A DNA stretch of 64,000 nucleotides. Source: a virus. The notes under the pieces were generated by a model, which saw only the letters and a program-made list of their open reading frames with translations, was not told the DNA's origin and did not search any database. The stretch lies in IMG/VR virus record IMGVR_UViG_3300045988_045053, positions 87,161-151,160 of that record; one strand, 5' to 3'. Each line of letters starts with the position of its first letter. The stretch's first letter is position 1. The translations under genes and the position numbers were made by a program. Shown here piece after piece: positions 8,569 to 64,000 of this stretch.

Positions 8569-9363
8569 TTAGAACTTACCCTCATTCGGTTGTAGACAAA
8601 TCAAGCCTTCATTTCTCCACATCTCCACACACTTACAATTGTCTTCAAGTACGAAAGGTATATAGAACTTGCCTTTGATATTGTCCTCATACAGTTTCTT
8701 CTTACATATAGGACCAGCAGTAAAGCTCTCAGCAGGACGCATGAGAAGTATGTCAGGATGCAACCAATTGTTCTCTAACCACTGTTCCGTAGCTTTACGA
8801 ACTTCAGGAGTGTCTTCTCTACCAGTTAGGATTATTAACTTAGCTGGATAGTTATCACAGAAATTTCTAATAAGCTCAATGACAGGAGTAATAGGCTCAT
8901 CAGTAAGCATACCTTCAGCTGCACCTTCTCCATAGAAAGGACGACCACTAGTATTTAAACATACAGTTGCATCCATATCTACTATGATTGCTGCTGGTAG
9001 GTTAGTATCTTGAACTAATGACTTAGCTTTGGCTGCCATAATTTCTTCATGGATTATGAAGTCCTTATAACGCCTCCAAGTTTGCCTAATAACCTTCTCT
9101 CCAATTGGATTAGGTCTCATGGCATCCCGGCGAATACATTCTTCAACAGGAGTCCAAAAGTCCTTATACTCTATATCAACATGTATTCCCTTGTCCTTCT
9201 CTATATTGGCACATAGAGTTCTAATCCATTCATCCTCTTTGGGATTCAGATTCATATTATCAACTACTACATCGTAACCTTTAACCAAAGCAAACGTTAT
9301 CATGTTAGCTTTAGCTTCAGTAACTAGCTTCTCCCTATTAGGAACCCAGTAATCACCTAACAT
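8569..9363 (-). CDS. pnk: polynucleotide 5'-kinase / 3'-phosphatase (Pnk), portion in the main frame
   Basis: HAD phosphatase part (DMDATVCLNTSGRP...LTGREDTPEV) and T4 Pnk-like kinase region. The Walker A region lies upstream in another frame. Confidence 0.75.
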   Translation of the reverse strand: MLGDYWVPNREKLVTEAKANMITFALVKGYDVVVDNMNLNPKEDEWIRTLCANIEKDKGIHVDIEYKDFWTPVEECIRRDAMRPNPIGEKVIRQTWRRYKDFIIHEEIMAAKAKSLVQDTNLPAAIIVDMDATVCLNTSGRPFYGEGAAEGMLTDEPITPVIELIRNFCDNYPAKLIILTGREDTPEVRKATEQWLENNWLHPDILLMRPAESFTAGPICKKKLYEDNIKGKFYIPFVLEDNCKCVEMWRNEGLICLQPNEGKF

Positions 9364-9782: not shown

Positions 9783-10181
9783 TTAATCAATATTACATAA
9801 GACATCACTGAATCCACTATAATCTAAATCAGTTAAAACGTCCCGTATAAACGATATATAATCTCTTGTGCTTTGCAAATCTCGTATATACTCTTTAGTG
9901 GATATTATCTCCTCTATAGATTCGGGATTACCATAACAGAATTTCTCGTATTCTGTACGTCTAGTTTCTGCTTTAGTAATGTCAGCATCAATGTCTTGAA
10001 TTACTGATTCAACATCACTAATAGTGAGTTTAGTATACTTCTCCTCATTACCAGCATATGCTATATTGAGATTGTCAGAGAATCTCTGATATACCTCGTT
10101 AGACCTACTAAATGATTGAAGTAGTAACTTCTCCTCCGGATGTGCCCTAGGCACTAAGTAAAATGATAAATAACTACTCAT
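9783..10181 (-). CDS. hypothetical protein
   Basis: 132-aa ORF. Confidence 0.4.
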   Translation of the reverse strand: MSSYLSFYLVPRAHPEEKLLLQSFSRSNEVYQRFSDNLNIAYAGNEEKYTKLTISDVESVIQDIDADITKAETRRTEYEKFCYGNPESIEEIISTKEYIRDLQSTRDYISFIRDVLTDLDYSGFSDVLCNID

Positions 10182-10939
10182 TTCTCGTTAGTTGGCTTAA
10201 GCCATAAATTAGTGTTCTTAAAAATGTAATCTCTAAGTCTTGGAAGGTAATCAAGATATGTTAAGGTTCTAATGGTATTGCATCTAAAACACTTAATCAG
10301 TTCCTCTCTAATTCTCTCCTCTGACACTACTGGCATTTTAGAATCATAATCATATAACACTATAGCTTGCCAAGTTGTTTGCTCTATTGTGAATCTCTTA
10401 GTAACCGCAAACCTAATGGCTCTAAGTATCCTAAGAGGGTCATCATCGAATGTTGTTACAGGGTCGAGGGGAGTTCTTATCAAAGCATTCGTTATATCAT
10501 GCTTACCATAAAAGTAGTCAATGATTTCTCCAGTATCAGGGTCTTTAGCCATAGCATTAACAGTGAAATCTCTACGTGATAAATCATCATACAAGTTACC
10601 TGGTTCTACTATGGGAATCCTAGTGCCTGGGACATATCCTACTTCCTTTCTAGCCATTACGAAGTCTGCCACACCTTGATACTTGTATCCTTCTGGGAAC
10701 TTAGCACGTATAGTATAGCACTTTGGAGTTACTAAGAAGATTTCAAACTTCTGCTCTTCTAAGTAGCTCTTTAATGCTTTGAACATTAGTTGAGCTGGAC
10801 TAAGCTGAGCTTCACATGGGTGAATTTTACTATAGACTGCCTCTGTAGGCACAGCTACATAATCAACATCCTTATTGGTAAGACCTAGGAGTTCATCTCT
10901 AATCTTACCGCCTACTTCATAAAATTTAAAATCTTCCAT
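10178..10939 (-). CDS. cca: tRNA nucleotidyltransferase (CCA-adding enzyme / poly(A) polymerase family)
   Basis: GGKIRDELLG...DVDYV head motif, RRDFTVNAMA, DDPLRILRAIRFA. Confidence 0.75.
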   Translation of the reverse strand: MEDFKFYEVGGKIRDELLGLTNKDVDYVAVPTEAVYSKIHPCEAQLSPAQLMFKALKSYLEEQKFEIFLVTPKCYTIRAKFPEGYKYQGVADFVMARKEVGYVPGTRIPIVEPGNLYDDLSRRDFTVNAMAKDPDTGEIIDYFYGKHDITNALIRTPLDPVTTFDDDPLRILRAIRFAVTKRFTIEQTTWQAIVLYDYDSKMPVVSEERIREELIKCFRCNTIRTLTYLDYLPRLRDYIFKNTNLWLKPTNEK

Positions 10940-11599: not shown

Positions 11600-11900
11600 A
11601 TATTAATACGAGTTTATCAAATTCTTCATCTGTTCCTTCATAAGGAGTAATTTTATAGTTGTAGTAATCTTCCCACTCGATACTATCAACTACCTGTCTT
11701 ATAGCTTCTTCAGTCATGTTATGATATTCATAACCTTCTGTAGTAACTATAAACGAATCTGGAACTATACCAACTGCGATTTCGAAAGCATATGCATCAG
11801 CTGCATTGTTCATGTCTTCATCAAACAAGCTCTCTGCGTATGCAGCATATCCACTATATGTTTCGAAATCATTAATGCAAGTTATAATATACCTGTTCAT
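11526..11900 (-). CDS. hypothetical protein
   Basis: 124-aa ORF. Confidence 0.35.
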   Translation of the reverse strand: MNRYIITCINDFETYSGYAAYAESLFDEDMNNAADAYAFEIAVGIVPDSFIVTTEGYEYHNMTEEAIRQVVDSIEWEDYYNYKITPYEGTDEEFDKLVLIYDGRLRQRNSDPRVDEGEIEPVQG

Positions 11901-13270
11901 TGGTCAGATTCTATATCAACTTCACCTTTATCTAATGCTTTAGATTCTGCAAATAAGAATCTATTACATTTTAACTTATATGCCCCAGACAGACCGTCTT
12001 CTATACGAATTACTATACCTTCATGTGGCACATCATTGTGACACTCCGGAGATAGTTCTTCCATGAAGAAATTCTTGTCCTCGGCTAATCTTTGTATGAA
12101 ATTCTCATTCCAGTGTTCAGATATATCCGGATATAAATCCTTCGCATATCCATAATACAGTTCTGTTACCGGAGTGAGGCCCTTATCTTTACACCATTGT
12201 TGCACTTGTCTAGCACTAAATTCATACACTATTCCGTCAGGATTAGTATAAGTAATACGGTACACTCTGATACCAAAATGCACATTATACTTATATGGAG
12301 TAGTAGGGTCCCATATCGGCATATCGTAACCATAATCATAAGCTTTACCTCCCATTGACTGAATTGCTCCTCCAGTAGGAAGCCAGCCTATAATTTCATA
12401 ATAAAGAGTTAATCCTTTAGTTAAAAATGGCTGTAATACTTTATGAGCTTCTCCCCACACATCACAGCCATAGTAACCCTCACTAACTTCCTTATTATAA
12501 TATTGGTTCTTTACAACCTTTCTAGAGGACCACAGATAGTCGTATGCAGTGTCAGGTACATAGGTAAGCCAGCCAGCCACCTTGTCTTTCCACTTCAATT
12601 GCCTTTTGCATAACACATCTGCTGATATTCCAGACGTGCCATGAACTTTACTAGTAATACTAATAATGTCGTTTGGCTTAATTATCCATGGACACTTCTT
12701 AATAAGAATAGTATCATAGTGGAATCTAAACTGATTGTCAACTAACTTGCTCAACCCTTTAGGCTGTTTACCAGTTCTAGTTTTATTGCTGGAGCCAGAA
12801 GTTCTATTCTTTAATACGTACTTCTTACAAATAAACAGGTTTCCTACCCTATCAAATTCAGTGCCGGCATCTATTCCAGTTACAGCTTCGGTATGTCCAA
12901 GAGAGCTTATCCATTTAGTAATGGACTCTATAGACATAATAAATCCTTCTGAAACATGGCCCTGCAACTTAATAATCTTCACTCTTCCGTTATCTTCGAA
13001 ATACCCAGGTGCTGCTTCCTTGTCAGCATTCAGCTCAATATGTCTGAACTGGTTATTAGCTGACAAGAAAGAATAGTCAATAGCACATCCTATAGGGAAA
13101 TACACATACATTCCAGGTTCTGTATCTTTACTAACCGAAATAGTATATCCGTCTATATGAGCACATTTAAGACGCTCGCACTTAGGGTTTGGGTGTGGTG
13201 TAAAATCGTGGATTTCCACAATCTTAGCACAATAGTTAATATTGATTTTAGGTGATTGATTTAATTGCAT
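11897..13270 (-). CDS. RNA ligase (Rnl2-like nucleotidyltransferase) with N-terminal extension
   Basis: Motif I SKVHGTSGI (KxHGT is Rnl2-type), EGIVIR (motif IV), KLK (motif V). Sits close to pnk and cca. Confidence 0.6.
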   Translation of the reverse strand: MQLNQSPKININYCAKIVEIHDFTPHPNPKCERLKCAHIDGYTISVSKDTEPGMYVYFPIGCAIDYSFLSANNQFRHIELNADKEAAPGYFEDNGRVKIIKLQGHVSEGFIMSIESITKWISSLGHTEAVTGIDAGTEFDRVGNLFICKKYVLKNRTSGSSNKTRTGKQPKGLSKLVDNQFRFHYDTILIKKCPWIIKPNDIISITSKVHGTSGISADVLCKRQLKWKDKVAGWLTYVPDTAYDYLWSSRKVVKNQYYNKEVSEGYYGCDVWGEAHKVLQPFLTKGLTLYYEIIGWLPTGGAIQSMGGKAYDYGYDMPIWDPTTPYKYNVHFGIRVYRITYTNPDGIVYEFSARQVQQWCKDKGLTPVTELYYGYAKDLYPDISEHWNENFIQRLAEDKNFFMEELSPECHNDVPHEGIVIRIEDGLSGAYKLKCNRFLFAESKALDKGEVDIESDQ

Positions 13271-41409: not shown

Positions 41410-41464
41410 ACTCGTGACCTTCCCTTTAGGAGAGGGACGCTCTATTCTACTGAGCTACTAGACC
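41391..41464 (-). tRNA. tRNA-Arg(CCT)
   Basis: Cloverleaf GGTCTAG..GCTC AGTAGAATA GAGC..TCCCT CTCCTAA AGGGA..CGAG TTTGAAT CTCG..CCA; anticodon CCT; CCA encoded. Confidence 0.8.
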
Positions 41465-52687: not shown

Positions 52688-52815
52688 AGAGTGGGGACGG
52701 TGGGGATTGAACCCACATGTAACCTATTACCCTTTCAACAGCGTATAAGGCAGAGGGGATACGTCCCTATAAACAAATATTCATCAGTTTCTCTAACCGA
52801 TTGAGATACGGGCCC
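52111..52815 (-). tRNA. split tRNA, anticodon UCA (would read UGA): exons 52783..52815 and 52111..52151, ~633-nt insertion
   Basis: 5' exon GGGCCCG TA TCTC AATCGGTTA GAGA A ACTGA T. 3' exon TTCAAA TCAGG AGGTT GTCGG TTCAAGT CCGGC CGGGCCC A. The acceptor halves GGGCCCG/CGGGCCC are perfectly complementary. The anticodon arm ACTGA/TCAGG gives loop xTTCAAA, anticodon TCA. The alternative stem CTGAT/ATCAG would instead give a TTC (Glu) anticodon but needs a non-standard position-26 insertion and a 6-nt variable loop. Confidence 0.55.
52690..52767 (-). ncRNA. tRNA-like element inside the insertion (acceptor + T arm, no canonical D or anticodon arms)
   Basis: AGGGACG ... GTGGG TTCAATC CCCAC CGTCCCC A; the interior (TCCCCTCTGCC...AGGGTAATAGG) does not fold as a D or anticodon arm. 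Confidence 0.35.
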
Positions 52816-54071: not shown

Positions 54072-54077
54072 TTCAGT

Positions 54078-55010: not shown

Positions 55011-55013
55011 AAA

Positions 55014-55394
55014 TTACTCATTTACAGTTGCAGCAGCGTCATCTTTCACGTCATCCAAATTAATGGATTCTGATGCATCAGCGGGAAATTCTTCTGCATC
55101 GACTTGCATAGCCAGAGCAAGCTCAATCTTTGCAACACGTAGTTTACGTGCCAATTCATGTCTTGTTCTTACCCATTCAGCCGGATTCAGTCCTTCTCCC
55201 GGATTCAAAGAGTCTCTTGATTTAACAGCTAGGTCATTGTGTTTGTTGATTTCTCCCTGAATGCGAAGTACTTTCAACTTACAATCCTGAACAAATCTGT
55301 CTTCCTCGATTTTAGCCAATTCATACAGATTCTGCGCTCTTGCATCAAGTACACTTTGTCCACTCTTACTTAATTTCTCTTTAAAACTGCTCAT
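55014..55394 (-). CDS. hypothetical coiled-coil protein
   Basis: 126-aa ORF. Confidence 0.4.
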   Translation of the reverse strand: MSSFKEKLSKSGQSVLDARAQNLYELAKIEEDRFVQDCKLKVLRIQGEINKHNDLAVKSRDSLNPGEGLNPAEWVRTRHELARKLRVAKIELALAMQVDAEEFPADASESINLDDVKDDAAATVNE

Positions 55395-55480
55395 TTACAC
55401 TTACATTTAACATGTTAAATTCAATAAGCATCTCTGTGTGGTAATTTATAATCTAACTGTAATCATCTAGGATTACAATC

Positions 55481-55563
55481 GAGCCGACTGTCAGATTCGA
55501 ACTGACGTGGAGTTTCCTCTCGTGATTACAAGTCACGTGCAATCAACCACTATGCGAAGTCGG
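55481..55563 (-). tRNA. tRNA, type II-like with anticodon TGT (long variable arm; isotype uncertain)
   Basis: GCCGACT..GCA TAGTGGTTGAT TGC..CGTGA CTTGTAA TCACG..14-nt variable arm (GGA AAC TCC)..GTCAG TTCGAAT CTGAC..AGTCGGC T. A UGU anticodon with a long variable arm is atypical. Confidence 0.55.
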
Positions 55564-55621
55564 CATAAACAGGAGACGATGTTACTAAGTGTGCTGACAT
55601 CTCCTTCGTAAATCAAAGAAA

Positions 55622-55693
55622 GCGGTGCATACGGGATTCAAACCCGTGGTCTCCTCATAGACAGTGAGGCATCCTATCACTGAACGAATGCAC
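55622..55693 (-). tRNA. tRNA-Asp(GTC)
   Basis: GGTGCAT..GTTC AGTGATA GGAT (2 G-U)..CCTCA CTGTCTA TGAGG..ACGGG TTTGAAT CCCGT..ATGCACC G. Confidence 0.75.
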
Positions 55694-55988
55694 CATGAAG
55701 CTTGCTTAACCTACCCTCTAAACCTATGCTTGGACTTGCAGTCAGTTATTCAGATATTGTCCCTTCCCGCTAGCTGAGTCATTCTCTTACTGTAACCGTG
55801 TGTCCAACTCACAATTACTATTCAGATGTGCCAAATGGGACATGGCAATTCATAGAAAGTGGGTGCTAGCCGTTTCTATCCCACCATTGCGTACTACAGT
55901 GCTAGCTACCGTCTAAGCTTCCATCCCTTACGTTGCCTTAGAGTGTACATGATTATTATTGCCTAACCAGTTACCTGATTGGAAGGAT

Positions 55989-56061
55989 TATGTACGAGGT
56001 ACAGCTAACGGGACTCGAACCCGTATTTTATGCTTGAGAGGCATATTACCTAACCAGTTAG
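55989..56061 (-). tRNA. tRNA-Glu(CTC)
   Basis: ACAGCTA..TACT AACTGGTTA GGTA..TATGC CTCTCAA GCATA..ACGGG TTCGAGT CCCGT..TAGCTGT A. Confidence 0.7.
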
Positions 56062-56355
56062 TAGATAGCTGTGTGTTAAATAGTCGTGAGTAGTTAATTG
56101 CAACTATGACAAAATTAAGATTAAAGTCAAAGACCAGCCTATTGCTATCTAGGGCAAAGTCAAAGGAATTTTGTAACTTCGCAATAGACTGACAGGGTTT
56201 GAATTAATAATACTTAATTATGCTGGAAATCGTCCCTGTATGAAATACAGAACACGATTAATTTGTCGACAATGCATCGACTAGAGTCTTTGATGCAATT
56301 CATACTACTCACGCAAAGCTATGTTAGAATCCAATGAGATTCAAGACTATAGCAC

Positions 56356-57249
56356 CTATTTATCTGGATTGGAAATCTTAGTTAGCAATTCATAAGTTGC
56401 TTGTAACTCATTAGGAATTACTATCTTAAGTTCCAATAGTTTCTTACGTTCTTCAACTTTCCAAGTTTCACATTGTTGAGACAGGGTTTTGGCATCCAAA
56501 TTGAATCTATCAACAGCTTGTTTATAAGCCTGATTGACTTCATATTCAGAATCCTTTACCATTTTATCAATCTTAAACTTAATCTTATTAAGTCTGGCTG
56601 ATATGTCTCTGTGTTTCTGCTGTAATGCAAAGAATGTATTCTCTACCTTATCGCTACTAACAGACGGGTCATACGAGTACACGATTGTGTCAGTACCAGA
56701 ACCTTCAACTTTAGTAGGATTAGTATAGGCATCCATTAAAGCTCTACGGGCATTTGCAAACGGACGCATCGGATGAATATACTTACCAATAGCAGATGCT
56801 TCTGCTTCTAGTCTGTAATATTCCATACGTTCTGCAATGCTCAATGAAGCAATTGCTTCCTCTTCGGTAAGGATATGACCCTTAATCGGGGTGTCCAACT
56901 TGAATCCAGCTACGTCTGTAGCATATAAATCCCATGTGTACCTGTTAATAATTTCAAGTTCTTCTTCTCTAGCCTTAATAGCTTCACGAATCCATGCACA
57001 GAAGGCATTCATATTAGCAACTTCTTGAAGTAATGTGGGCACATTATCAAGATATGCCTCATTTCTACCTGTCTTCACAGTCCTAGAGTTACCTCCACTT
57101 AGCAAGCTAATATTGACATTCACAAACCCTACAGAATCTAAAGCTTGTCTATTAGATTCTACTGTTTCCTTAGCTATATTAGCCAGGTGATTGGCAGAAG
57201 TTTGGGTTAATCCCTTCTCGCCAAAGAATACTTTGTTACATTCTTTCAT
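56356..57249 (-). CDS. hypothetical protein
   Basis: 297-aa ORF. Confidence 0.45.
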   Translation of the reverse strand: MKECNKVFFGEKGLTQTSANHLANIAKETVESNRQALDSVGFVNVNISLLSGGNSRTVKTGRNEAYLDNVPTLLQEVANMNAFCAWIREAIKAREEELEIINRYTWDLYATDVAGFKLDTPIKGHILTEEEAIASLSIAERMEYYRLEAEASAIGKYIHPMRPFANARRALMDAYTNPTKVEGSGTDTIVYSYDPSVSSDKVENTFFALQQKHRDISARLNKIKFKIDKMVKDSEYEVNQAYKQAVDRFNLDAKTLSQQCETWKVEERKKLLELKIVIPNELQATYELLTKISNPDK

Positions 57250-57280
57250 AAGCTGTAATTATTAATTCATTACTAATGCA

Positions 57281-57346
57281 CTGGATAGGGGATTCGAACC
57301 CCCGCATAGAAAGTGCGTCGACCTAAACCACTAGTCGAATCCAGTA
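57281..57346 (-). tRNA. short tRNA-like gene (~66 nt; no room for a variable loop; loop CTTTCTA)
   Basis: Acceptor ACTGGAT/ATCCAG(G), D arm GACT AGTGGTTTA GGTC, anticodon arm ACGCA CTTTCTA TGCG(G), T arm GGGG(G) TTCGAAT CCCC(T). The arms abut with no variable region. Probable degenerate or non-canonical tRNA. Confidence 0.35.
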
Positions 57347-57353
57347 TACCTTA

Positions 57354-57641
57354 TTAAGCTTTCCAGAATACAAACTTATTGCCTTCTGGACATCTTACAT
57401 ACTTCACATCAAAACCATTCTCTCGATATAGAGGTTCTACATCTAACCAATGGTTCTTAATTACTTCTTCTTCAGTTAAACCTTCAGATGCTACATAGGC
57501 TATTACATCTGATTGCTTAAATTCAGAAGCTTTACCACTCCAGTTCTTAACTATTAAAGTATTAAAAGCTAAGATAACTGCATCAGGAATAGATTTTAAA
57601 TCTATACTCCTCAATTCTCTTGAATTTAATACCTTCACCAT
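57354..57641 (-). CDS. hypothetical protein
   Basis: 95-aa ORF. Confidence 0.4.
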   Translation of the reverse strand: MVKVLNSRELRSIDLKSIPDAVILAFNTLIVKNWSGKASEFKQSDVIAYVASEGLTEEEVIKNHWLDVEPLYRENGFDVKYVRCPEGNKFVFWKA

Positions 57642-57693
57642 AATTCTAATAATTAGGTTAATAATGATTTTCGCAAACTCTTATTAGCCAGCG

Positions 57694-57781
57694 CGGAGAG
57701 TGCTGGATTCGAACCAGCGGAACCCTTTTGAGGTTCGGTCCCTTAGCGGGGGACTGGTTTAAGCCACTCACCCAACTCTTC
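57694..57781 (-). tRNA. tRNA-Ser(GCT)
   Basis: Type II: GAAGAGT..GGT GAGTGGCTTAA ACC..GTCCC CCGCTAA GGGAC..variable GAACC TCAAAA GGTTC..GCTGG TTCGAAT CCAGC..ACTCTCC G. Confidence 0.75.
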
Positions 57782-57868
57782 AATCCACAGAAGACTTATT
57801 TATGCTATATCAATCGCTTATGATTACCTTAGTGCTGTAAGTCTTCTTAGAAATTCACTGTAAAAGGA

Positions 57869-59830
57869 TTACTTTACAGGAGGAAAATTATCACCTTTAG
57901 CTGGTGATTCTTCTGGCTTCTTGCCAGTGATTATTTGCCTAAGCGAATCTGCAATAGGCAAATTACGGGCAATCTCCAAGCTAGGAGCAAGATTCTTAGC
58001 CATATTAGCCATGAACTGTCCAGCAGTGTTGGAATCACCATACACAGTAACATTACCAAGCTGGATATGTTCAAATACCTTAGCGTTGGCTTCAGCAACT
58101 TCCTTCCACCTGTCGGTCATTGCATATTGAACGATTGCTTCAGGATGCATACCTGATTTAATCATATGTTCAACTGCAAGAGCCGGAGCCATTTCCATTG
58201 CCTGTTTCTGTTCAGCTTCTGCCATTAAAGATGCTTTCTTACCTTCAGCTTCGGCAAGAAGTTTCTTCTTAGTACCTTCAGCTTCTGCTTCCAGTTGCAT
58301 CTTAGTAGCATTTGCTTTAGCTTCTGCTGCTTTCAAGATTTTAGCTGCTTCCGCTTCTGCTTCAAGAATGGCTACACTCTTAACAGCTTCTGCTTCAATC
58401 TTAGCTTTCTCTTTGGCCTTCTCGGCAGGTATAATCACTTCGGCTTTAAGCTTAGCTTCTTCAGCTTTAGCTTTAGCTTCATTAACTTCTACCTGACGTT
58501 CTTGCTCTGTTTTAGCAACTGCCATTTGAGCTTCAACTTTGGAAGTACCAGCTACTCTTTCAGCTTCAGCTTTAGCTTTCTCTGCTTCTCCCTTAGCTTT
58601 GGAAACTTCAATAGTAGCTTTCTGTTCAGCTACTCCTGCTGCTTTCTCTGCTTCAGCTGCCTTTTGACGGGCTTCTGATTCATACTGTGCAGTTTTAGCT
58701 TCTTTCTCCTGCTGTGCTTTAACAGTTTCAGCTTCTTGGTTTTGTGCTGCTACTGCCATACGAACTTCCTTCTCTGCTTCTGCTTCTGCCTTAGCGGCTT
58801 CAGCTTTGGCAGTAAATTCTGCTTCTTTAGCAGTTGCATAAGCTTGCTGCTCTGCAATCTTGGCAGCTTTCAATGCTTCTTGCTCGGCAACTTTGGAAGC
58901 TTCTTCAGTTTGGGCTGTAGCCACACCAATTTCACGTTCCTTTCTTTGCTCTGCAACAGCAATTTGTTGTTCCTTATGCTGCTCGGCCAATTGAGTTTCT
59001 TTCTCTTTAGTGGTCTTAGCAATAGCAACTTCTTTCTCCCTGTTAGTTTCAGCCACTATAGTTTCTTGCTCCTTAGTAGCTGCTGCAATTGCAATCTCCT
59101 TCTCTCTCGTAGTTTGAGCTATCTGGATTGCTCCTTTCTTCTCTTCTTCTGCGATATCAGCTTGTGATTGCGCTCTTGCTTTAGTCTCTTCTTTCTTACC
59201 AAGATTATCAATATATTGAGCAGCATCTTGAATGTCACTGATATTGATATTCATCAGATAAAGACCAAGTTTGTTCAATTCCGTATTGATATTGTCTCTA
59301 GCTTGAGCTAGGAACTTGTCTCTGTCAGAGTTAAGCTCTTCAATAGTCATCGAAGCAATAACAAGCCTCATCTGACCATAAACAATATCTGAAATCAAAC
59401 TTTCTTTAACGTCATCATCAGCACCTAGTAAGCGATTAGCAGCATTCTGCATAATCAGCGGTTCTTGGCTAATAGCAACAGTTACAGTAGTAGGAATAGT
59501 TACACGAATATTTTGAGCTGACAAAGCATTCTTCAATACAAGATTCAATTGAATCGGTTGCATTGACATTACTTCATAACCCTGTATAATCGGCCATACA
59601 AAAGCTGCACCACCATGATAAACCTTGGCAGTTTTAATTTCAACTTCTCTGTCAACCAGATTACCTTTAGCGTCGCGTTCGCTAACTTTCTCTTTGTGAG
59701 AGCCTGTTTTACCATAAACTACCAACAATTCGTCAGATTTACATTTACGGTAGCGGGATAGAATCCCAATGATAGTGATGATTGCAACTAGTACAACTAC
59801 ACCAACGATAATTAATGATGTCATTTCCAT
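57869..59830 (-). CDS. SPFH/band-7 (flotillin-like) membrane protein with long EA-rich coiled coil
   Basis: N-terminal TM helix, SPFH-like domain, then ~350 aa of AEAEKAKAE-type repeats. Confidence 0.65.
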   Translation of the reverse strand: MEMTSLIIVGVVVLVAIITIIGILSRYRKCKSDELLVVYGKTGSHKEKVSERDAKGNLVDREVEIKTAKVYHGGAAFVWPIIQGYEVMSMQPIQLNLVLKNALSAQNIRVTIPTTVTVAISQEPLIMQNAANRLLGADDDVKESLISDIVYGQMRLVIASMTIEELNSDRDKFLAQARDNINTELNKLGLYLMNINISDIQDAAQYIDNLGKKEETKARAQSQADIAEEEKKGAIQIAQTTREKEIAIAAATKEQETIVAETNREKEVAIAKTTKEKETQLAEQHKEQQIAVAEQRKEREIGVATAQTEEASKVAEQEALKAAKIAEQQAYATAKEAEFTAKAEAAKAEAEAEKEVRMAVAAQNQEAETVKAQQEKEAKTAQYESEARQKAAEAEKAAGVAEQKATIEVSKAKGEAEKAKAEAERVAGTSKVEAQMAVAKTEQERQVEVNEAKAKAEEAKLKAEVIIPAEKAKEKAKIEAEAVKSVAILEAEAEAAKILKAAEAKANATKMQLEAEAEGTKKKLLAEAEGKKASLMAEAEQKQAMEMAPALAVEHMIKSGMHPEAIVQYAMTDRWKEVAEANAKVFEHIQLGNVTVYGDSNTAGQFMANMAKNLAPSLEIARNLPIADSLRQIITGKKPEESPAKGDNFPPVK

Positions 59831-59843
59831 CTTGAAATTGGTA

Positions 59844-60365
59844 TTAATCTATGTATAATTTATTGTCTTCGTATTTACGAATCGTTACTGGCTCATTGAC
59901 AGGATATATCTTCTTATTAAGAGATACAACTTCTACTTCTCTCAATGCTCCACTTATGTTCACGGATGCCAAATGGCGCCCTTCACCTAAATGTACATAG
60001 ATAGTAGCAGTTCTGCCAACTAAGTTAGTCTTCGGTTCGTCTTTAGGAAGGTTCTGCAATTTCATACAGAACTTATATAAATGATACAGCATAAATACAA
60101 ATACAAGACCTATAAAGAATCCTATTAACCAATCAATCCAGGTTACTTCATAACCTAATAATTGCTTAATAGATGTCCATCCTCCGAATCCCATGAAGAA
60201 ATGGATAAATCCTTTAAAGGATACAACATCACTGACATCAAAGTCAGCATCACCATCAAAGTCTACGTCGACATCGAACTCCCCAGCAACCCATGATATT
60301 ATGAATTGTAGGATAAATATACCATAGGCGATGCCTCCTAAGATATAATACAAGTTATTGTCCAT
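59844..60365 (-). CDS. NfeD-like membrane protein (partner of the SPFH protein)
   Basis: Multi-TM N-terminal region and C-terminal OB-fold-like LVGRTATIYVHLGEGRHLASVNISGALREVEVVSL; directly downstream of the SPFH gene. Confidence 0.55.
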   Translation of the reverse strand: MDNNLYYILGGIAYGIFILQFIISWVAGEFDVDVDFDGDADFDVSDVVSFKGFIHFFMGFGGWTSIKQLLGYEVTWIDWLIGFFIGLVFVFMLYHLYKFCMKLQNLPKDEPKTNLVGRTATIYVHLGEGRHLASVNISGALREVEVVSLNKKIYPVNEPVTIRKYEDNKLYID

Positions 60366-60393
60366 CTTACTAATAATTATTTAATCTATTAAA

Positions 60394-60465
60394 GTGGGGC
60401 AAGGAGGAATCGAACCTCCAACGCCAGGCTCTTCAGACCTGCGCTCTACCATTGAGCTACCGCCC
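60394..60465 (-). tRNA. tRNA-Phe(GAA)
   Basis: GGGGCGG..GCTC AATGGTA GAGC..CAGGT CTGAAGA GCCTG..GGAGG TTCGATT CCTCC..TTGCCCC A. Confidence 0.8.
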
Positions 60466-60765
60466 CATACTGCCTACACGTACGTCTTCACTGGATTTTA
60501 TGCTTTATTACGCCAGTTGCTTTGGACAGTCTAAATCCTTCGGTGCTGTACAGCCATACATATATTAGTGAGGCCTCCACTTTAATTAAGCTGCCATCGC
60601 ACCTACTCCCATTACTTCGTCACGCAACGTACCCTACATTCCACTTTAGGATTTTCACCTAACCACATCCTCGGCATTCCGTTTCAAGATAAAATATAAC
60701 TCTGCTGAATAAGTCAAACCAAACAGGAAGATTTATGATACGTTTATACCTAAACAGCAGAATTG

Positions 60766-60839
60766 GGTGACATACGAGACTTGAACTCGTAACCCTTAGA
60801 ACCACAACCTAATGCTCTGCCAATTGAGCTAATGCCACC
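60766..60839 (-). tRNA. tRNA-His(GTG) with encoded G-1
   Basis: G-1 + GTGGCAT..GCTC AATTGGCA GAGC..TTAGG TTGTGGT TCTAA..ACGAG TTCAAGT CTCGT..ATGTCAC C73. Confidence 0.8.
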
Positions 60840-60847
60840 ATATTGAG

Positions 60848-61411
60848 TTATTGCAACTCTAATCCTTCTTTTAGTGCCCTAGTATATGCCATTCTAGCAA
60901 AGAATAGTTCAGCCACAGCCATAACTACTGGCTCTGCTAACTCTTCGGCTCTTTCTTCTTTGGGCTTAGATTCTACATATTCTAGTAATTCCAACACAGC
61001 TCTATTAGCTTCGACCAGGCGACTATAAGCAATGCGAACTTGTTTATAGTTCTTATATCTTTCTCGATATGGTCTTATTGCATTCCATGAATATGAAGCA
61101 GCTACTATTATTGATATGGCACATAGTACCATAAATCCGAAGGGTTCTCCTTTAGACCATGCTGAATAGATTTGACACAATACAGCACCCAAACATAGAT
61201 TCTGTCCTATAAAGAGGGACAATAAGAACCAATAAGCTGAAAAGGCTTTCTTTGCTTCATCAAGTAATGATGCTGACTCCTTTAGCTTCTCTTGTTCAGC
61301 TTTTAATGAGTCAACTGACACTTCCATAGCTTCCCCTTCTCCGTCTGAATCTTTAAGGCGTTCATATTCCTCTTCACTAATCTTAGTTATTTTCAAATCT
61401 TCTCGATTCAT
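60848..61411 (-). CDS. membrane-anchored coiled-coil protein
   Basis: Charged coiled-coil N-terminal region, then two hydrophobic helices. Confidence 0.4.
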   Translation of the reverse strand: MNREDLKITKISEEEYERLKDSDGEGEAMEVSVDSLKAEQEKLKESASLLDEAKKAFSAYWFLLSLFIGQNLCLGAVLCQIYSAWSKGEPFGFMVLCAISIIVAASYSWNAIRPYRERYKNYKQVRIAYSRLVEANRAVLELLEYVESKPKEERAEELAEPVVMAVAELFFARMAYTRALKEGLELQ

Positions 61412-61450
61412 TACCTTTCAATTTAAGTTCAACAATCTGTTGACCTGATG

Positions 61451-61511
61451 AGACTCGAACTCGGGTCTTTAGCGTGCAAAACTAACATAATTGCCACTAT
61501 ACTATGCCCCC
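61451..61511 (-). tRNA. tRNA-Ala(TGC)-like 5' two-thirds with non-matching 3' end (fragment or pseudogene)
   Basis: GGGGGCA TA GTAT AGTGGCAA..TTAGT TTTGCAC GCTAA..CCGAG TTCGAGT. The downstream sequence (CTCATCAGGTCA...) cannot pair with the T stem or acceptor 5' strand. Confidence 0.4.
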
Positions 61512-61680
61512 ATATTTAGCCACACTATCGTAGGGCTATCAGCTCCCAACGTCCGACTGATTACGGAAGAATCTATGAAATGCACAATTACTTAGTCATA
61601 CCCCAACTGTTCTTGTCAGTCTCCGACTCCAACCCATAGCATGTTGTAGAACTCTACATGCATACCCTCCTCATTGTGCA

Positions 61681-61992
61681 CTATTTTAAACCTATCATTT
61701 CAGCAATTTCTTCAAATGAATAATTCAGGAACAGTCTATCCATATCTGCATCAGATTTAACCCATTTAGGTCTAGGATATATAAGAGTAGGAGAATGTCC
61801 TCTCTCATGTAATCCATACACTACTTCCTTCTTACCTTTAATAAGACGAAGGTCAATATGCTCTGACATAGAAGAATAAAATCCTATATTAGAATCCTCT
61901 ACATATGTAGAACCCTTCTTAGACATTACCTTGCGATAAGGTTTATACCCTTTACTAATTAAATACTCTATGAACCCAATCATGTTAACCAC
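61681..61992 (-). CDS. hypothetical protein
   Basis: 103-aa ORF. Confidence 0.4.
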   Translation of the reverse strand: MVNMIGFIEYLISKGYKPYRKVMSKKGSTYVEDSNIGFYSSMSEHIDLRLIKGKKEVVYGLHERGHSPTLIYPRPKWVKSDADMDRLFLNYSFEEIAEMIGLK

Positions 61993-62038
61993 TATTAGTA
62001 CTCCAAGTAGGATTCAAACCTACGACCCGCACATTAGA

Positions 62039-62070
62039 ATGAATACCAGGATTCGAACCTAGTTATTCAC
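62039..62070 (-). ncRNA. tRNA minihelix-like hairpin (acceptor + T arm only) at the 3' end of the insertion
   Basis: GTGAATA A CTAGG TTCGAAT CCTGG TATTCAT; overlaps the HNH stop codon. Confidence 0.35.
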
Positions 62071-62671
62071 AATTAAGCATCTCTTCTTCCTTATGGTAGC
62101 GATAATAAGAACGCTCTCCACACTTGTTCTTAGACTTATACGTGTCTAATTGTGAATCGCAATTAGGACAAATACATCTGAGATTACCTCTCTTATTATT
62201 AGATGCATGACCATCAATATGGTCAATGACAAAGACCAGTTCTTTACCATTCCATACAGGTTTCATACCACAAATAGCACAGATTCCTCCTTGTTCATTT
62301 AAGATGTCATCTCTAAATGGTTGCGGGGAATAGTTAGCTCTCATTATACTAGAATCACCTTCCAGTATCTTTTGATACGCTAACTTATGTCTATGCTCTG
62401 CTTGACATTTGTTGCTGCAATACTTACCATAAGAACCATTGTAACTAATTAATTCCTTACCACAGTTTATGCACTGCTTGTGGACTCTGTTAAATGTTTC
62501 ACTAGGGTTTATACTACGTCTAGCAGGTAATTCAATACCTATTCTACGTGCAACATTCTTAATATTTGAACCTGTACATCCATATCTTCTTCCTATCTCT
62601 TCATAGCTAAGCTTATCTACTAAAATCAGTTGCTCTAGATTTGATTTCTCGTCAATCCATTTACTTGTCAT
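62063..62671 (-). CDS. HNH endonuclease (inside the tRNA-Arg-interrupting insertion)
   Basis: Zn-finger CINCGKE...CSNKC, then HNH VIDHIDGHASNNKRGNLRCICPNCD. Confidence 0.7.
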   Translation of the reverse strand: MTSKWIDEKSNLEQLILVDKLSYEEIGRRYGCTGSNIKNVARRIGIELPARRSINPSETFNRVHKQCINCGKELISYNGSYGKYCSNKCQAEHRHKLAYQKILEGDSSIMRANYSPQPFRDDILNEQGGICAICGMKPVWNGKELVFVIDHIDGHASNNKRGNLRCICPNCDSQLDTYKSKNKCGERSYYRYHKEEEMLNCE

Positions 62672-62880
62672 AATTCGTATTCATTTATTGATACGAATAA
62701 TTAATGAATTAAACAAGTGGCAACCAATTTTAGTAGTAAGGTGCTTAATGGTGATTTACGGCTCACCAACCGTGTGAAGTGTGCTGCTCTATTCACTGAG
62801 CTATTGGAGCATCATCAGAAGGCAAATTGAACTACATGACACAGTAAAAGTACTGATGCCTTCTTATATTACCCATTCAG

Positions 62881-63231
62881 TTATTCTGGATTAAGTAATT
62901 CTCTTGTCTCTTTCTTAAACTGTCTCCTATTATAGCGTTCTCCTTTACATATAGGACAACTACAAGGAGTACTGGTTGTTTTATAGGCAAACGTATATTT
63001 AGAATTATATAATTCTGTCCAATGTCTACCTCTTGCCGTTTTATCTGGATTATACCAGTAGGCAGCGTGGAGTTTAATCCTAGTAATATACTTCTGGTCT
63101 TTCTTTAGGTTCCTCCACCTTTTGTTTCTTTGGATTAGTGAATCCTTTAGTTTCTCCGTTCTTAGTTCTTCCATCGTCTCTACCATTAGTGTTAATAATG
63201 TCTTGAAACGGGTTGTAGCCGGTTCCAACAA
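62881..63231 (-). CDS. hypothetical basic protein with Cys motif
   Basis: CSCPICKGERYNRRQ; 116 aa. Confidence 0.4.
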   Translation of the reverse strand: MLEPATTRFKTLLTLMVETMEELRTEKLKDSLIQRNKRWRNLKKDQKYITRIKLHAAYWYNPDKTARGRHWTELYNSKYTFAYKTTSTPCSCPICKGERYNRRQFKKETRELLNPE

Positions 63232-63280
63232 ACTTCTTCATGTCCAATCCTGTTAAATTAATTCCTTTCATACGATAATT

Positions 63281-63628
63281 TTACAATCTATTAAATACTG
63301 CATGTTCCTTTAACCACTCTTGATAGAGCTTATCATCATAGTTCCCTGAATACTCCCAATGAAATCTACTACATTCTATAGTCTTTAGTAAGAACTTCAT
63401 CACAGACCTTGTATTAGCCTTCTTTGATATAGATGAAATGTAAAACTTCTCTTTATCAAAATCATAGTATCCTCGTAATACCACTCGGCGAGAATTTTGT
63501 CTATTTAAGTAAATTCTTGCCAACAACTTGGAGTTATTGTCTACATATCGAGTAGGTATGAATTTATAAGCCATCTGATTCAGCCAGCAATAAAGTAATA
63601 CCAATACAATAGGCATTATTAACTGCAT
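63281..63628 (-). CDS. hypothetical protein
   Basis: 115-aa ORF. Confidence 0.35.
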   Translation of the reverse strand: MQLIMPIVLVLLYCWLNQMAYKFIPTRYVDNNSKLLARIYLNRQNSRRVVLRGYYDFDKEKFYISSISKKANTRSVMKFLLKTIECSRFHWEYSGNYDDKLYQEWLKEHAVFNRL

Positions 63629-63887
63629 TCAGCCTCTTCTTAAGTTCCTTCTTAGCCTTTCTGGGCAACTTAGGATACTCTGCATATAAATCCTGTTCAG
63701 CGGCTCTACTTGCTTCGCTTAATTGCTCAAGTAAAGCATTAACATCTTCTTTAGTTTTGTAATCCTTAAGAAGGACTCTAACTAATGTGGGACGTTTTAC
63801 CATTTCTCGCATTCCAGATTCGTACACTCTACAAATTTGGTTTCTACTTAACGTAGACACTCTCCTTAATTTCACTTTAAACTTCAT
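63564..63887 (-). CDS. hypothetical protein
   Basis: 107-aa ORF. Confidence 0.35.
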   Translation of the reverse strand: MKFKVKLRRVSTLSRNQICRVYESGMREMVKRPTLVRVLLKDYKTKEDVNALLEQLSEASRAAEQDLYAEYPKLPRKAKKELKKRLNAVNNAYCIGITLLLAESDGL

Positions 63888-63906
63888 AATACATTCAAAT
63901 TAGTTG

Positions 63907-63960
63907 AGGAAGCAGAGGGATTCGAACCCCCGTGCCCTTGCGGGCAAACGGTTTTCAAGT
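63907..63960 (-). tRNA. 3' portion of a type II tRNA (Ser-TGA-like); 5' partner not adjacent (window edge)
   Basis: (C)TTGAAA ACCGT..variable GCCC GCAA GGGC..GGGGG TTCGAAT CCCTC..TGCTTCC T. The sequence immediately 5' (GGGATAAAA...) cannot pair with ACCGT, so the gene is either interrupted like the other two or truncated. Confidence 0.35.
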
Positions 63961-64000
63961 TTTATCCCGCGTCTGTTGCCTGCCGGTTGTTAGTGCTTTT

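Follow-up and report, generated by a model that had tools for sequence, protein, structure and literature searches.

The window analysed here is a 64,000-nt stretch of viral DNA (positions 87,161 to 151,160 of IMG/VR record IMGVR_UViG_3300045988_045053), and near its end lies a tRNA-Arg(UCU) gene whose two halves, on the minus strand at 62810-62777 and 62037-61999, are 739 nt apart. Run in intron mode, ARAGORN predicts a tRNA-Arg(tct) at c[61998,62810] that contains an intron of 739 nt, bearing out an earlier sequence-only reading, in which an HNH-bearing insertion of ~740 nt interrupts the anticodon loop of an Arg-TCT tRNA. The other parts named in that reading (exons that restore a tRNA, a Zn-finger HNH ORF, an 8-bp hairpin and a minihelix) are all present on the minus strand. 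From the 5' exon to the 3' exon, the features are:

62777..62810, minus strand: tRNA-Arg(UCU) 5' exon GCTCCAATAGCTCAGTGAATAGAGCAGCACACTT, comprising the acceptor 5' strand, D arm, anticodon-stem 5' strand GCACA and loop CUU
62749..62776, minus strand: 5' boundary module, C-AC and then an H-type pseudoknot, with covariation over 13 rows
62699..62748, minus strand: spacer with ACTTGTTTAATTC, conserved in the related loci L098 and L101
62673..62698, minus strand: 8-bp hairpin just upstream of the HNH ATG, arms ATTCGTAT (62698-62691) and ATACGAAT (62680-62673)
62063..62671, minus strand: HNH homing endonuclease gene, 202 aa, ATG at 62671-62669 and stop codon at 62065-62063
62038..62070, minus strand: 3' boundary module, a tRNA-like minihelix whose paired part occupies 62070-62039
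61999..62037, minus strand: tRNA-Arg(UCU) 3' exon CTAATGTGCGGGTCGTAGGTTTGAATCCTACTTGGAGTA, comprising CUAA, the anticodon-stem 3' strand UGUGC, variable loop, T arm, acceptor 3' strand and discriminator A

The trinucleotide TTC occurs at both junctions, so the 5' exon may end at C32, U33, U34 or C35 (62779 to 62776); genomes with an empty site fix the boundaries of the insertion. An uninterrupted tRNA-Arg(TCT) with identical D arm, anticodon arm and variable loop occurs in 19 IMG/VR contigs, and the acceptor and T stems of these homologues differ from those of the split gene by compensatory changes only, which argues against a chance pairing of unrelated halves. On this comparison the split gene is a genuine, canonical tRNA-Arg(UCU) interrupted within the anticodon loop. 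The C at 61998 directly follows its discriminator A, and the base after the discriminator is C in 13/13 tRNA genes of the window, none of which (0/13) encodes CCA. Arg is encoded by AGA in 48.8% of cases, more often than by any other codon, and there is no second tRNA-Arg(UCU) gene within the 64-kb window.

Each end of the insertion bears a structured module. At the 5' end, S1 pairs ACGG (62773-62770) with CCGT (62761-62758) and S2 pairs TGGTGA (62768-62763) with TCACCA (62754-62749), with AAA as the connecting loop. At the 3' end, the minihelix mimics a tRNA acceptor/T arm, with a 7-bp acceptor-like stem (GTGAATA/TATTCAT), a bulged A, a T stem (CTAGG/CCTGG), a T loop (TTCGAAT) and a discriminator-like T at 62038; it overlaps the HNH stop codon (62065-62063) and folds with an MFE of -11.7 kcal/mol (z = -4.2). 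Because a loose regular expression for the pseudoknot was unspecific (96 matches vs 60 in shuffled sequence), the set was restricted to matches directly after a tRNA 5' half. This NN-ACRG pseudoknot follows the 5' half of tRNA-Arg, tRNA-Ile2 and tRNA-Asn genes in 13 aligned rows (~11 variants), begins 2-3 nt past the 5' exon in all family members and, among the loci examined, is located solely at intron starts. The acceptor/T-arm mimic, in ten variants, ends 1-2 nt ahead of the 3' exon and is followed by N-C, as tRNA discriminators are followed by C. In alignments hand-built to fit the proposed structures, 95.3% of pseudoknot cells are paired vs 68.5% when shuffled (0/500 shuffles as good; 37 cells altered on both sides), and 98.3% of minihelix cells are paired, with 11/12 pairs covarying and again 0/500 shuffles as good. 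This covariation indicates that pseudoknot and minihelix are RNA modules under selection. Both the minihelix and the hairpin upstream of the HNH gene, which had been mentioned in passing in the sequence-only reading, are conserved modules.

Some family members have no ORF. They are 101-136 nt long, keep both the pseudoknot and a tRNA-like module, and lie in tRNA genes of three kinds that are otherwise intact (Arg, Ile2 and Asn); with the Rfam tRNA model the latter two score 48-56 bits, and ARAGORN in intron mode calls the Arg gene. In place of the minihelix they have a larger tRNA-like domain, in whose thermodynamic folding the acceptor stem closes and clean cloverleaves do not form. Another pair (L130/L131) has lost the HNH reading frame and retained the boundary modules and exons. 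The order of the family is: 5' exon, 2-3 nt and H-type pseudoknot, optional HNH gene with its hairpin/promoter box, minihelix and 1-2 nt, 3' exon. The sequence-only reading had seen here the same architecture as in another split tRNA gene of the window, and this does not hold: the insertion at 52110-52815 has no 5' pseudoknot, its HNH protein is unrelated and has its domains in the opposite order, its tRNA-like element precedes the ORF, and that ORF continues across the 3' exon.

From N- to C-terminus, the HNH protein has a helix-turn-helix, a zinc finger (CxxC...CxxxC) and the HNH motif. It matches phrog_10822 HNH (E = 5e-20) and, weakly and under their cut-offs, Pfam HNH_3 and Endonuclease_7; DHIDG...N...CxNC is invariant across the family. 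Of the ~100 loci examined that encode a relative, most have it within a tRNA(UCU) gene or right next to one, a distribution by which the enzyme family is dedicated to these genes. Most are free-standing, directly upstream or downstream of an intact tRNA(UCU) gene, with a real tRNA exactly at the position of the minihelix. One HNH gene (L138) lies ~140 nt from an ORF-less intron in tRNA-Arg(UCU), and another (L132) adjoins a 216-nt intron at the same site that ends in G. A scan of GTDB genomes found a single close relative (L177), free-standing beside an intact tRNA-Arg(tct) on a 163-kb contig binned as Bacteroides. The spacer sequence ACTTGTTTAATTC is a putative Bacteroidota-type -33 promoter element of the HNH gene, going by the consensus TTTG / TAnnTTTG. 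The 8-bp hairpin accompanies the HNH gene even where the gene is free-standing, the same ATTCGTAyCTTTG box being found upstream of the gene in L177; the hairpin belongs to the HNH cassette, putatively as an operator or -7 region.

The closest copy of the insertion is in a phage whose backbone is unrelated to that of the window phage (L097). The two introns differ by 0 substitutions over 739 nt and one 14-nt gap (in the hairpin region, 14 nt including TATCTTTG are missing from the window copy); the identity takes in ~25 nt of the 5' exon and ~12 nt of the 3' exon, and the flanking sequences are unrelated. Three loci (L003, L018 and L019) have flanks 95-97% identical to those of L097 and an empty site, GCACACTTCTAATGTGC, so that presence and absence are polymorphic at one precise site. 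On these alignments the 739-nt insertion is a mobile homing-endonuclease cassette, recently transferred. Against its closest relative (L101), the window is 88% identical in the upstream flank, 81% in the downstream flank and 100% in the outer exon parts, while the anticodon stem and intron have diverged (ORF 72%), with the switch inside the anticodon stem; the pattern is that expected of an exon co-conversion tract. The HNH element is thus copied into intron-less or differently occupied alleles of co-infecting phages, and the copying carries along a few exon bases on each side, including both anticodon-stem strands, by way of a predicted cleavage of those alleles. The mobility that the sequence-only reading had proposed is supported, by the L097 copy, the empty sites and the co-conversion tract; the group I nature that it implied is not. 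Megablast of the locus against GenBank phages gave no match, and MT835470.1, whose NrdD and RNA ligase are 98-99.7% identical to those of the window, has no match to the insertion locus; searching IMG/VR with the 5'-junction pattern returned one near-duplicate (L096) and three chance matches only.

The main rival to excision from RNA is that the tRNA gene may simply be dead, inactivated by a selfish HNH cassette and substituted by a host tRNA, with the pseudoknot and minihelix serving the element, for example in releasing or stabilising the HNH mRNA from the tRNA-array transcript by RNase P/Z-type processing. We regard this as less likely than excision, on evidence that points both ways. In the L097/L022 copy, the host tRNA has lost its 3' acceptor strand through a 16-nt deletion, so the function of the host tRNA is not always maintained. 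A transfer so recent means that intact halves need not reflect selection, and co-conversion can hand down complementarity of the anticodon stem across the insertion without selection. No splicing mechanism is known for such an element, and free-standing relatives have a real tRNA at the minihelix position. But the ORF-less members keep both modules in intact tRNA genes with no mRNA to serve; L130/L131 keep the boundary modules and exons after loss of the HNH reading frame; ARAGORN calls a cloverleaf tRNA at every split allele detected (~10 distinct), the 3' end being lost in the L097/L022 allele only; the pseudoknot lies upstream of the presumed HNH promoter; and the gene is the sole tRNA-Arg(UCU) of the window, for the commonest Arg codon.

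A conventional self-splicing group I intron with an HNH gene, as in cyanobacterial, Patescibacteria and Bacteroidota tRNA genes, is a far less likely reading. Its location in the anticodon loop would suit, the 5' exon can end in U, and the window does contain a group I intron, in thyX. Moreover, group I introns bearing homing endonuclease genes are known in Bacteroidota tRNA-Arg(UCU), and RF00028 can miss tRNA introns (PMC13011429). The insertion itself has none of the marks of the class. (i) In the registers compatible with empty-site alleles there is no terminal G (omega-G), the allowed last bases being A62040, T62039, T62038 and C62037; in relatives the last intron base is A or C. (ii) A scan with RF00028 for the conserved group I core (P3-P9) gave no match in 54000-64000 at E <= 10, nor any at the insertion at E <= 1 across the whole window, and in the same scan found the thyX intron (2492-2828, 38.9 bits). 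Candidate G-terminated introns in L132, L175 and L126 also gave no group I match in Rfam (gathering, E <= 5), so we take the silence of RF00028 as supporting evidence. (iii) Non-coding RNA in the insertion amounts to 105 + 25 nt (~130 nt), roughly half of it the HNH promoter/hairpin box, short of the about 200 nt or more expected for a group I core. (iv) By eye, no P1-type guide pairing of exon and intron is consistent across variants, and L110 and L111 have one intron in common with different anticodon stems. With ORF-less relatives of 101-136 nt, we rejected a group I intron.

An archaeal-type intron cut by a BHB splicing endonuclease, or a split tRNA whose halves assemble in trans, is equally improbable. 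The anticodon-loop site would fit either, and the internal promoter-like box could yield a separate 3' transcript. By eye, however, there is no bulge-helix-bulge at the junctions: the 3' junction follows a continuous 12-bp helix and 1-2 nt, and the 5' junction is followed by the pseudoknot, leaving no arrangement of 3-nt bulge, 4-bp helix and 3-nt bulge. The 65 window ORFs scanned include no tRNA-intron splicing-endonuclease domain, and the halves have no complementary leader or trailer.

More probable than these two, and still improbable, is a new ribozyme. By itself, or helped by the anticodon arm or the minihelix, the pseudoknot would self-cleave or self-splice at its own 5' side, much as HDV-like theta ribozymes cut at the 3' ends of tRNAs, and Pnkp would heal the 2',3'-cyclic phosphate before ligation. 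An unpaired NN-A is conserved ahead of S1, the A-rich loop resembles that of a triplex-forming pseudoknot, HDV-like ribozymes adjoin tRNAs in gut Bacteroidota phages (PMC10879173), and the window encodes a Pnkp, whose phosphatase domain is needed for exactly such chemistry. Against this, the 25-30-nt core is below any known natural self-cleaving class, helix lengths vary widely, and no Rfam ribozyme, the HDV family included, matched at E <= 10. An HDV-like or theta ribozyme in particular was rejected. Such ribozymes form a nested double pseudoknot (P1, P1.1, P2, P3, with or without P4), are cut at the first P1 base and have their catalytic C in J4/2; here, with only 8 nt between the S1 strands a P3 hairpin is impossible (there is no P3/L3), 2-3 unpaired nt precede S1, and no catalytic C is conserved. 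An HDV-like descriptor of our own making accepted far too many sequences and was dropped.

The position of the pseudoknot and tRNA-like hairpin at the bounds of the insertion suggests a possibly new way to remove tRNA introns. A tRNA minihelix is the minimal substrate of RNase P, RNase Z and CCA-adding enzyme, and the phage encodes further candidate enzymes:

11897..13270, minus strand: RNA ligase, candidate sealing enzyme (phrog_968 RNA ligase, E = 2e-40; weak match to TIGR02306, DRB0094 family)
8569..9363, minus strand: Pnkp-like polynucleotide kinase/3'-phosphatase, candidate end-healing enzyme (HAD_PNKP, E = 7e-25; phrog_505, E = 1.5e-45)
10178..10939, minus strand: tRNA nucleotidyltransferase of the CCA-adding family (phrog_24229, E = 5e-65; PolyA_pol, E = 1.5e-17)

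In the excision that we envision, the body of the pre-tRNA would fold normally, and the minihelix would show the 3' junction to the activity that trims the 3' ends of all phage tRNAs, which would cut in RNase Z fashion behind the discriminator or behind the C next to it. A second endonucleolytic cut, made by RNase P or by some other nuclease or ribozyme activity, would be placed at the 5' junction by the pseudoknot. Held together by pairing of the acceptor and anticodon stems, the exons would have their ends healed and sealed by the phage Pnkp and RNA ligase. The predicted spliced junction reads GCACACUUCUAAUGUGC in the window-type exon context, or ...GAGCAGCACACUUCUAAUGUGCGGGUCGUAGG..., and a bacterial virus would on this scheme splice a tRNA with the help of proteins.

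No enzyme is known to cleave RNA 2-3 nt ahead of a pseudoknot of this kind, and the combined length of S1 and S2 varies from 7 to 12 bp, a poor fit to a measuring enzyme such as RNase P; a cut by RNase P at the 5' side of the minihelix would delete the HNH stop codon. The genes for Pnkp, CCA-adding enzyme and RNA ligase are context only, lying outside the insertion at 8.5-13.3 kb, and these enzymes have ordinary explanations in repair after anticodon nucleases or in maturation after theta-ribozyme cleavage (PMC10879173). We put at about 45% the account as a whole, i.e. a non-group-I mobile cassette of an undescribed intervening-sequence family, cut at its modules by tRNA end-processing enzymes, with exons joined by the phage Pnkp and RNA ligase. 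More tentative is the proposal of a new, non-self-splicing class of tRNA intron in bacterial viruses, in which a tRNA mimic and a pseudoknot direct host or phage end-processing nucleases, and ligase and Pnkp rejoin the exons; a 160-nt minimal RNase P RNA-like gene, present in the tRNA array of one phage with such an intron (L138, 2831-2990), might provide the 5' cut.

Self-splicing (group I, rarely group II) is the generally accepted route for introns in bacterial and phage tRNA genes, and the splicing of tRNAs by enzymes is considered a feature of archaea and eukaryotes. The elements described here, a mobile one with an HNH gene and its relatives with no ORF, lie in tRNA-Arg, tRNA-Ile2 and tRNA-Asn genes of phages and have no ribozyme core. 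If they are excised from RNA, they represent a new intron class and splicing route, which would explain the Pnkp, RNA ligase and CCA-adding genes of intron-rich gut phages, and tRNA gene finders undercount phage tRNAs. Should the new class be real, protein-dependent tRNA splicing extends beyond archaea and eukaryotes, and phage 'RNA repair' genes gain a housekeeping role. If they are not excised, the locus nevertheless records a clear natural case of homing, in which empty site, occupied site and co-conversion tract can all be seen and the endonuclease family targets a single tRNA anticodon loop.

Among known systems, group I introns with homing-endonuclease genes occur in the anticodon loops of bacterial tRNA genes, including tRNA-fMet (I-Ssp6803I), tRNA-Leu(UAA) and tRNA-Arg(CCU). 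Others are the group I intron with a PD-(D/E)XK endonuclease gene in Bacteroidota tRNA-Arg(UCU) and that with an HNH gene in Patescibacteria tRNA-Asn (PMC13011429). The window insertion shares with these its anticodon-loop location, homing endonuclease gene, allele mobility, exon co-conversion and presence/absence polymorphism; unlike them, it has no terminal G, detectable core or P1-type pairing, has ORF-less relatives of 101-136 nt, and is bounded by an H-type pseudoknot and a tRNA-like minihelix, an architecture for which we found no description in the literature searched.

Free-standing homing endonucleases, such as T4 SegB, also occur in phage tRNA clusters, and a 'collaborative homing' model, reportedly that of Bonocora and Shub in 2009, has endonuclease genes invading introns. 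The HNH family of the window is likewise free-standing beside intact tRNA(UCU) genes in most relatives; in the window, by contrast, the HNH gene lies within the intervening sequence, and the associated intron is not a demonstrated ribozyme.

Archaeal and eukaryotic tRNA splicing uses a splicing endonuclease with RtcB or Trl1, and in T4, Pnkp and Rnl1 repair breaks in anticodon loops; Pnkp and ATP-dependent RNA ligase are the enzyme types that make up fungal Trl1. The proposed scheme resembles these in its structure-defined anticodon-loop cuts followed by healing and sealing, in a phage that encodes Pnkp and RNA ligase, and differs from archaeal and eukaryotic splicing in having no BHB or splicing endonuclease, the cut sites presumably being set by the intron's own tRNA mimic and pseudoknot.

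HDV-like theta ribozymes flank tRNAs in gut Bacteroidota phages (Kienbeck et al. 2024, PMC10879173), in which the DRB0094-type ligase is enriched 140-fold and the CCA enzyme 250-fold. The window likewise has a compact pseudoknotted RNA abutting tRNA sequence in a gut phage with DRB0094-type ligase and CCA-adding genes. Theta ribozymes, however, come after a whole tRNA and, with their catalytic C, take on the nested double-pseudoknot fold of HDV, whereas the window pseudoknot follows a tRNA half and cannot adopt that fold.

Finally, tRNA-like structures draw RNase P and RNase Z to transcripts other than tRNAs, as in MALAT1/mascRNA, and the TYMV tRNA-like structure has a pseudoknot upstream. The insertion resembles these in an acceptor/T-arm mimic positioned for end definition by tRNA-processing enzymes and in its pseudoknot-plus-tRNA-like layout. 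Those elements lie at the 3' ends of mRNAs or genomes and involve no exon ligation, whereas the minihelix of the window lies inside the anticodon loop of a tRNA.

The two halves of a tRNA-Arg(UCU) gene, separated in the anticodon loop by a 739-nt insertion, join into a 73-nt cloverleaf with acceptor stem GCTCCAA/TTGGAGT (including a G1-U72 pair), D arm GCTC/GAGC, anticodon stem GCACA/TGTGC, loop CTTCTAA giving anticodon UCU, and T arm GTAGG/CCTAC. The sequence-only reading had proposed this split, with an ORF, an 8-bp hairpin and a T-arm-like minihelix inside it, and each was found where it had been placed:

62810-62777, minus strand: tRNA 5' half, GCTCCAATAGCTCAGTGAATAGAGCAGCACACTT
62698-62691 and 62680-62673, minus strand: arms of the 8-bp hairpin
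62063-62671, minus strand: HNH ORF, 202 aa
62070-62039, minus strand: T-arm-like minihelix
62037-61999, minus strand: tRNA 3' half, CTAATGTGCGGGTCGTAGGTTTGAATCCTACTTGGAGTA

Standard ARAGORN and an Rfam scan at gathering threshold both miss the gene; the intron-aware prediction that the reading had called for, ARAGORN with introns allowed, gives tRNA-Arg(tct) at c[61998,62810] with a 739-nt intron. The comparison with uninterrupted homologues, likewise proposed there, found tRNA-Arg(TCT) in 19 IMG/VR contigs whose D arm, anticodon arm and variable loop are those of the joined halves and whose acceptor and T stems differ by compensatory changes only; the halves are thus not chance fragments. AGA is the commonest Arg codon (48.8%), and the split gene is the only tRNA-Arg(UCU) gene found in the window. 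All 13 window tRNA genes (e.g. 41391-41464, 60395-60466 and 61999-62810) have a C directly 3' of the discriminator, while none encodes CCA and one has CC. The pattern points to a 3'-end maturation rule peculiar to this phage group; the group also has a CCA-adding enzyme of its own.

The ORF encodes an HNH endonuclease (phrog_10822, E = 5e-20; weak Pfam matches to HNH_3 and Endonuclease_7) with a zinc finger and an N-terminal helix-turn-helix. Its closest GenBank relative, 58% identical, is from crAss-like phage cr116_1, where the gene is free-standing between a tRNA-Leu and an intact tRNA-Arg(tct) that begins 8 nt past the HNH stop codon; the Zeta group of crAss-like phages is intron-rich (Yutin et al., PMC7886860). 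Scans of IMG/VR, metagenomes and GTDB genomes gave about 100 loci (L-numbers below), and in most of those with a callable tRNA the HNH gene lies inside a tRNA with loop CTTCTAA, a few nt upstream of it or 20-120 nt downstream, so the family is dedicated to tRNA(UCU) genes. Beside a free-standing HNH gene, many of the UCU tRNAs have A73, a long variable arm and a length of 84-87 nt (e.g. L109 1352-1436, L103 1395-1479, L122 2128-2212); these are class II, with Leu/Ser/Tyr-like bodies, and might read AGA as a non-Arg codon or be endonuclease-resistant variants.

About half of the insertion's 105-nt non-coding stretch is a box, ACTTGT...ATTCGTAyCTTTG..., which belongs to the HNH gene, since it also lies upstream of free-standing copies. 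It is probably a Bacteroidota-type promoter/operator, a reading based on the Bacteroidota consensus TAnnTTTG. Fourteen nucleotides, ATCTTTGTATTCGA, present in the L097 copy of the insertion, are absent from the window copy (62681-62690); among them is the TATCTTTG box, a conserved element that precedes every HNH gene of the family, and the window HNH gene may therefore have lost its promoter.

That 14-nt gap, in the hairpin, is the sole difference between the window insertion and the L097/L022 copy (OGPS01000006, 232 kb), with no substitutions across all 739 nt. Identity extends past the insertion through roughly 25 nt of the 5' exon and roughly 12 nt of the 3' exon (the flanking tRNA halves), beyond which the flanks are unrelated. 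L003, L018 and L019, of the L097 phage lineage with flanks 95-97% identical, have an uninterrupted site, GCACACTTCTAATGTGC, which fixes the insertion boundaries to within an ambiguity of TTC, present on both sides. The closest relative of the window among the compared loci is L101 (ODLM01000015, 186 kb), identical in the ~65 nt that immediately precede the tRNA and in the outer exon parts, with whole flanks 88% (upstream) and 81% (downstream) identical; its intron has diverged (ORF 72%, 5' leader 54%), and its anticodon stem is ACGCC/GGCGT versus GCACA/TGTGC in the window. From this identity pattern the window combines an L101-type backbone, an L097-type cassette and a co-converted anticodon stem. 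This is a homing signature, and the insertion is a homing element, as its suggested mobility had implied.

The group I nature also implied by the sequence-only reading did not hold up. No register that the empty-site alleles allow puts a G at the intron end; the final base is A, T, T or C, and relatives' introns end in A or C. The insertion has just 105 + 25 nt of non-ORF RNA, and ORF-less family members are 101-136 nt. Rfam gives no match at the insertion at E <= 10; the same scan detects, as a positive control, an intron splitting thyX between two Thy1 (ThyX) ORF fragments:

2492-2828, minus strand: group I intron (RF00028, 38.9 bits, E = 2e-6, below gathering score)

Because some tRNA introns escape RF00028 (PMC13011429), size and the lack of a terminal G carry most of the exclusion; we regard a group I intron as very improbable. 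We give as little credence to a bulge-helix-bulge intron or split tRNA: the junctions do not form such a motif, and no splicing-endonuclease domain was found in the 65 window ORFs scanned.

Conserved RNA structures lie exactly at both insertion boundaries. We compared HNH-bearing tRNA-Arg genes (window, L098/L099, L101/L024, L105, L110/L111, L118, L120) with ORF-less introns in L138/L140 (tRNA-Arg, 136 nt), L144/L149 (tRNA-Asn, 101 nt) and L138 190-365 (101 nt); the last, Gln to ARAGORN, we read as tRNA-Ile2(CAU) from exons giving CUCAUAA and an Ile2-like body. Two modules recur. Directly after the 5' exon comes NN-ACRG, 1-3 nt, a 4-8-nt strand b, 0-1 nt, CYG(U), an A-rich 1-4 nt (counted past the optional U) and strand b', together forming an H-type pseudoknot of helices S1 and S2. 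In a hand-registered alignment 95.3% of its cells are paired, versus 68.5% when shuffled and 24-44% with the partner slid, the 95.3% being inflated by an alignment built to fit the structure, although changes on both sides of a pair are genuine. Six S2 pairs covary and S2 cells are 100% paired; S1 alternates between G-C and A-U among variants. Among all loci collected it occurs at intron starts only. Directly before the 3' exon, a 5-bp T stem (loop TTCGAnT) carries a stacked 7-bp acceptor-like stem, with a single base and a C coming next. In this minihelix 11 of the 12 pairs covary and 98.3% of cells are paired; the folding energy of the window copy is -11.7 kcal/mol (z = -4.2). In ORF-less members it closes a larger tRNA-like domain; the Ile2 and Asn genes reach 48-56 bits against the Rfam tRNA model, and ARAGORN calls the Arg gene in intron mode. 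With only 8 nt between the S1 strands, the pseudoknot cannot take an HDV/theta-ribozyme fold, and the insertion matches no ribozyme family in Rfam; a new small ribozyme seems improbable.

The Asn junction is unambiguous (5' exon ...CUGU; intron AUACAG...CUGAAC). In Arg and Ile2 the C that follows the discriminator-like base may be exon C35 or C34, or else the last intron base; if it is assigned to the intron, one rule, NN-ACRG...acceptor-N73-C74, would serve all three tRNAs. The intron 3' end then resembles the phage's own tRNA 3' ends, with their C after the discriminator, but this is suggestive only, as for Arg and Ile2 the anticodon also explains the C.

The window's other split tRNA, to which the sequence-only reading had ascribed the same architecture, proved to be a different element:

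52110-52815, minus strand: second split tRNA (ttc by ARAGORN, UCA in the sequence-only reading), HNH gene 52082-52687

Its HNH protein is unrelated to that of 62063-62671, with reversed domain order. There is no 5' pseudoknot; a tRNA-like acceptor/T-arm sequence (GGGACG...GTGGGTTCAATCCCCACCGTCCCCA, 13 nt past the 5' half) lies upstream of the ORF, which continues through the 3' exon. G is a possible last base of the intron.

Some further loci are peculiar. (i) L132/L133 2142-2430 is a tRNA-Arg(tct) with a different, ORF-less 216-nt intron at the same site, ending in G (...GAGATAGTCG...AAGAAG), without an Rfam match and with a free-standing HNH gene about 70 nt upstream of it; the pair is a candidate for collaborative homing that involves a true group I intron. 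(ii) In L023 671-1279 a tRNA-Leu(CAA) is interrupted by a 130-aa ORF, resembling by eye I-Ssp6803I-type PD-(D/E)XK endonucleases, and then a complete tRNA-Ser(TGA) whose discriminator abuts the Leu 3' half; the pseudoknot is absent. (iii) L138 2831-2990 (+) (Ga0265299_10009868), 160 nt in a phage tRNA array, matches RF00373 end to end without the specificity domain (41.9 bits, E = 1e-10, below gathering score) and contains GAGGAA..UC and ACAGAA; it looks like a minimal phage RNase P RNA, and neighbouring tRNAs have pseudoknot-type introns. Right after it, a tRNA (3001-3180; Rfam 34.6 bits) has a 121-nt insertion in which the pseudoknot/minihelix pattern was not seen. (iv) L144 3427-3582 (+), also in a phage tRNA array, is a partial tmRNA match (34.8 bits, E = 9e-11) ending at the contig edge.

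Three phage genes for RNA processing cluster at 8569-13270:

8569-9363, minus strand: Pnkp-like kinase/phosphatase
10178-10939, minus strand: CCA-adding enzyme
11897-13270, minus strand: RNA ligase (weak DRB0094-family match; 42-44% identical to Lak megaphage proteins)

We propose, with a probability of roughly 45%, that the tRNA body folds in the pre-tRNA with its halves paired, that the minihelix would bring an RNase Z-type endonuclease, one acting on tRNA 3' ends, to the 3' junction, that the pseudoknot would guide a second cut at the 5' junction, and that the phage Pnkp and RNA ligase would heal and seal the paired exons. Apart from RNase P, no general enzyme is known to cut 5' of a tRNA-like helix, and RNase P fits the 5' cut poorly, given the 2-3-nt offset and variable helix length. 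The main rival, which we hold to be unlikely, is that tRNA-Arg(UCU) has been inactivated and the structures serve the element itself. The L097/L022 copy indeed lies in a tRNA-Arg that, relative to intron-less sisters, has lost its 3' acceptor strand to a 16-nt deletion (GTACGGGGTACTTAAA; L097 2148-2170), seen in two independent assemblies; co-conversion could explain the stem complementarity; and other functions are known for the repair genes, with the ligase and CCA-adding enzyme families reported as enriched in theta-ribozyme phages (PMC10879173). Yet ORF-less members retain both modules in intact Ile2, Asn and Arg genes, and in L130/L131 two deletions have destroyed the HNH frame but left the exons and boundary elements unaltered.

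Phage tRNA clusters are known to harbour free-standing endonucleases, e.g. SegB of T4. Endonuclease-bearing group I introns occur in tRNA anticodon loops, including Bacteroidota tRNA-Arg(UCU) (PMC13011429). In the literature searched we found no description of tRNA intervening sequences bounded by a pseudoknot and a minihelix, and we tentatively raise the possibility of a categorically new, enzyme-dependent intron class. Mobile, endonuclease-bearing tRNA intervening sequences are already known; the new feature here is the RNA scaffold.
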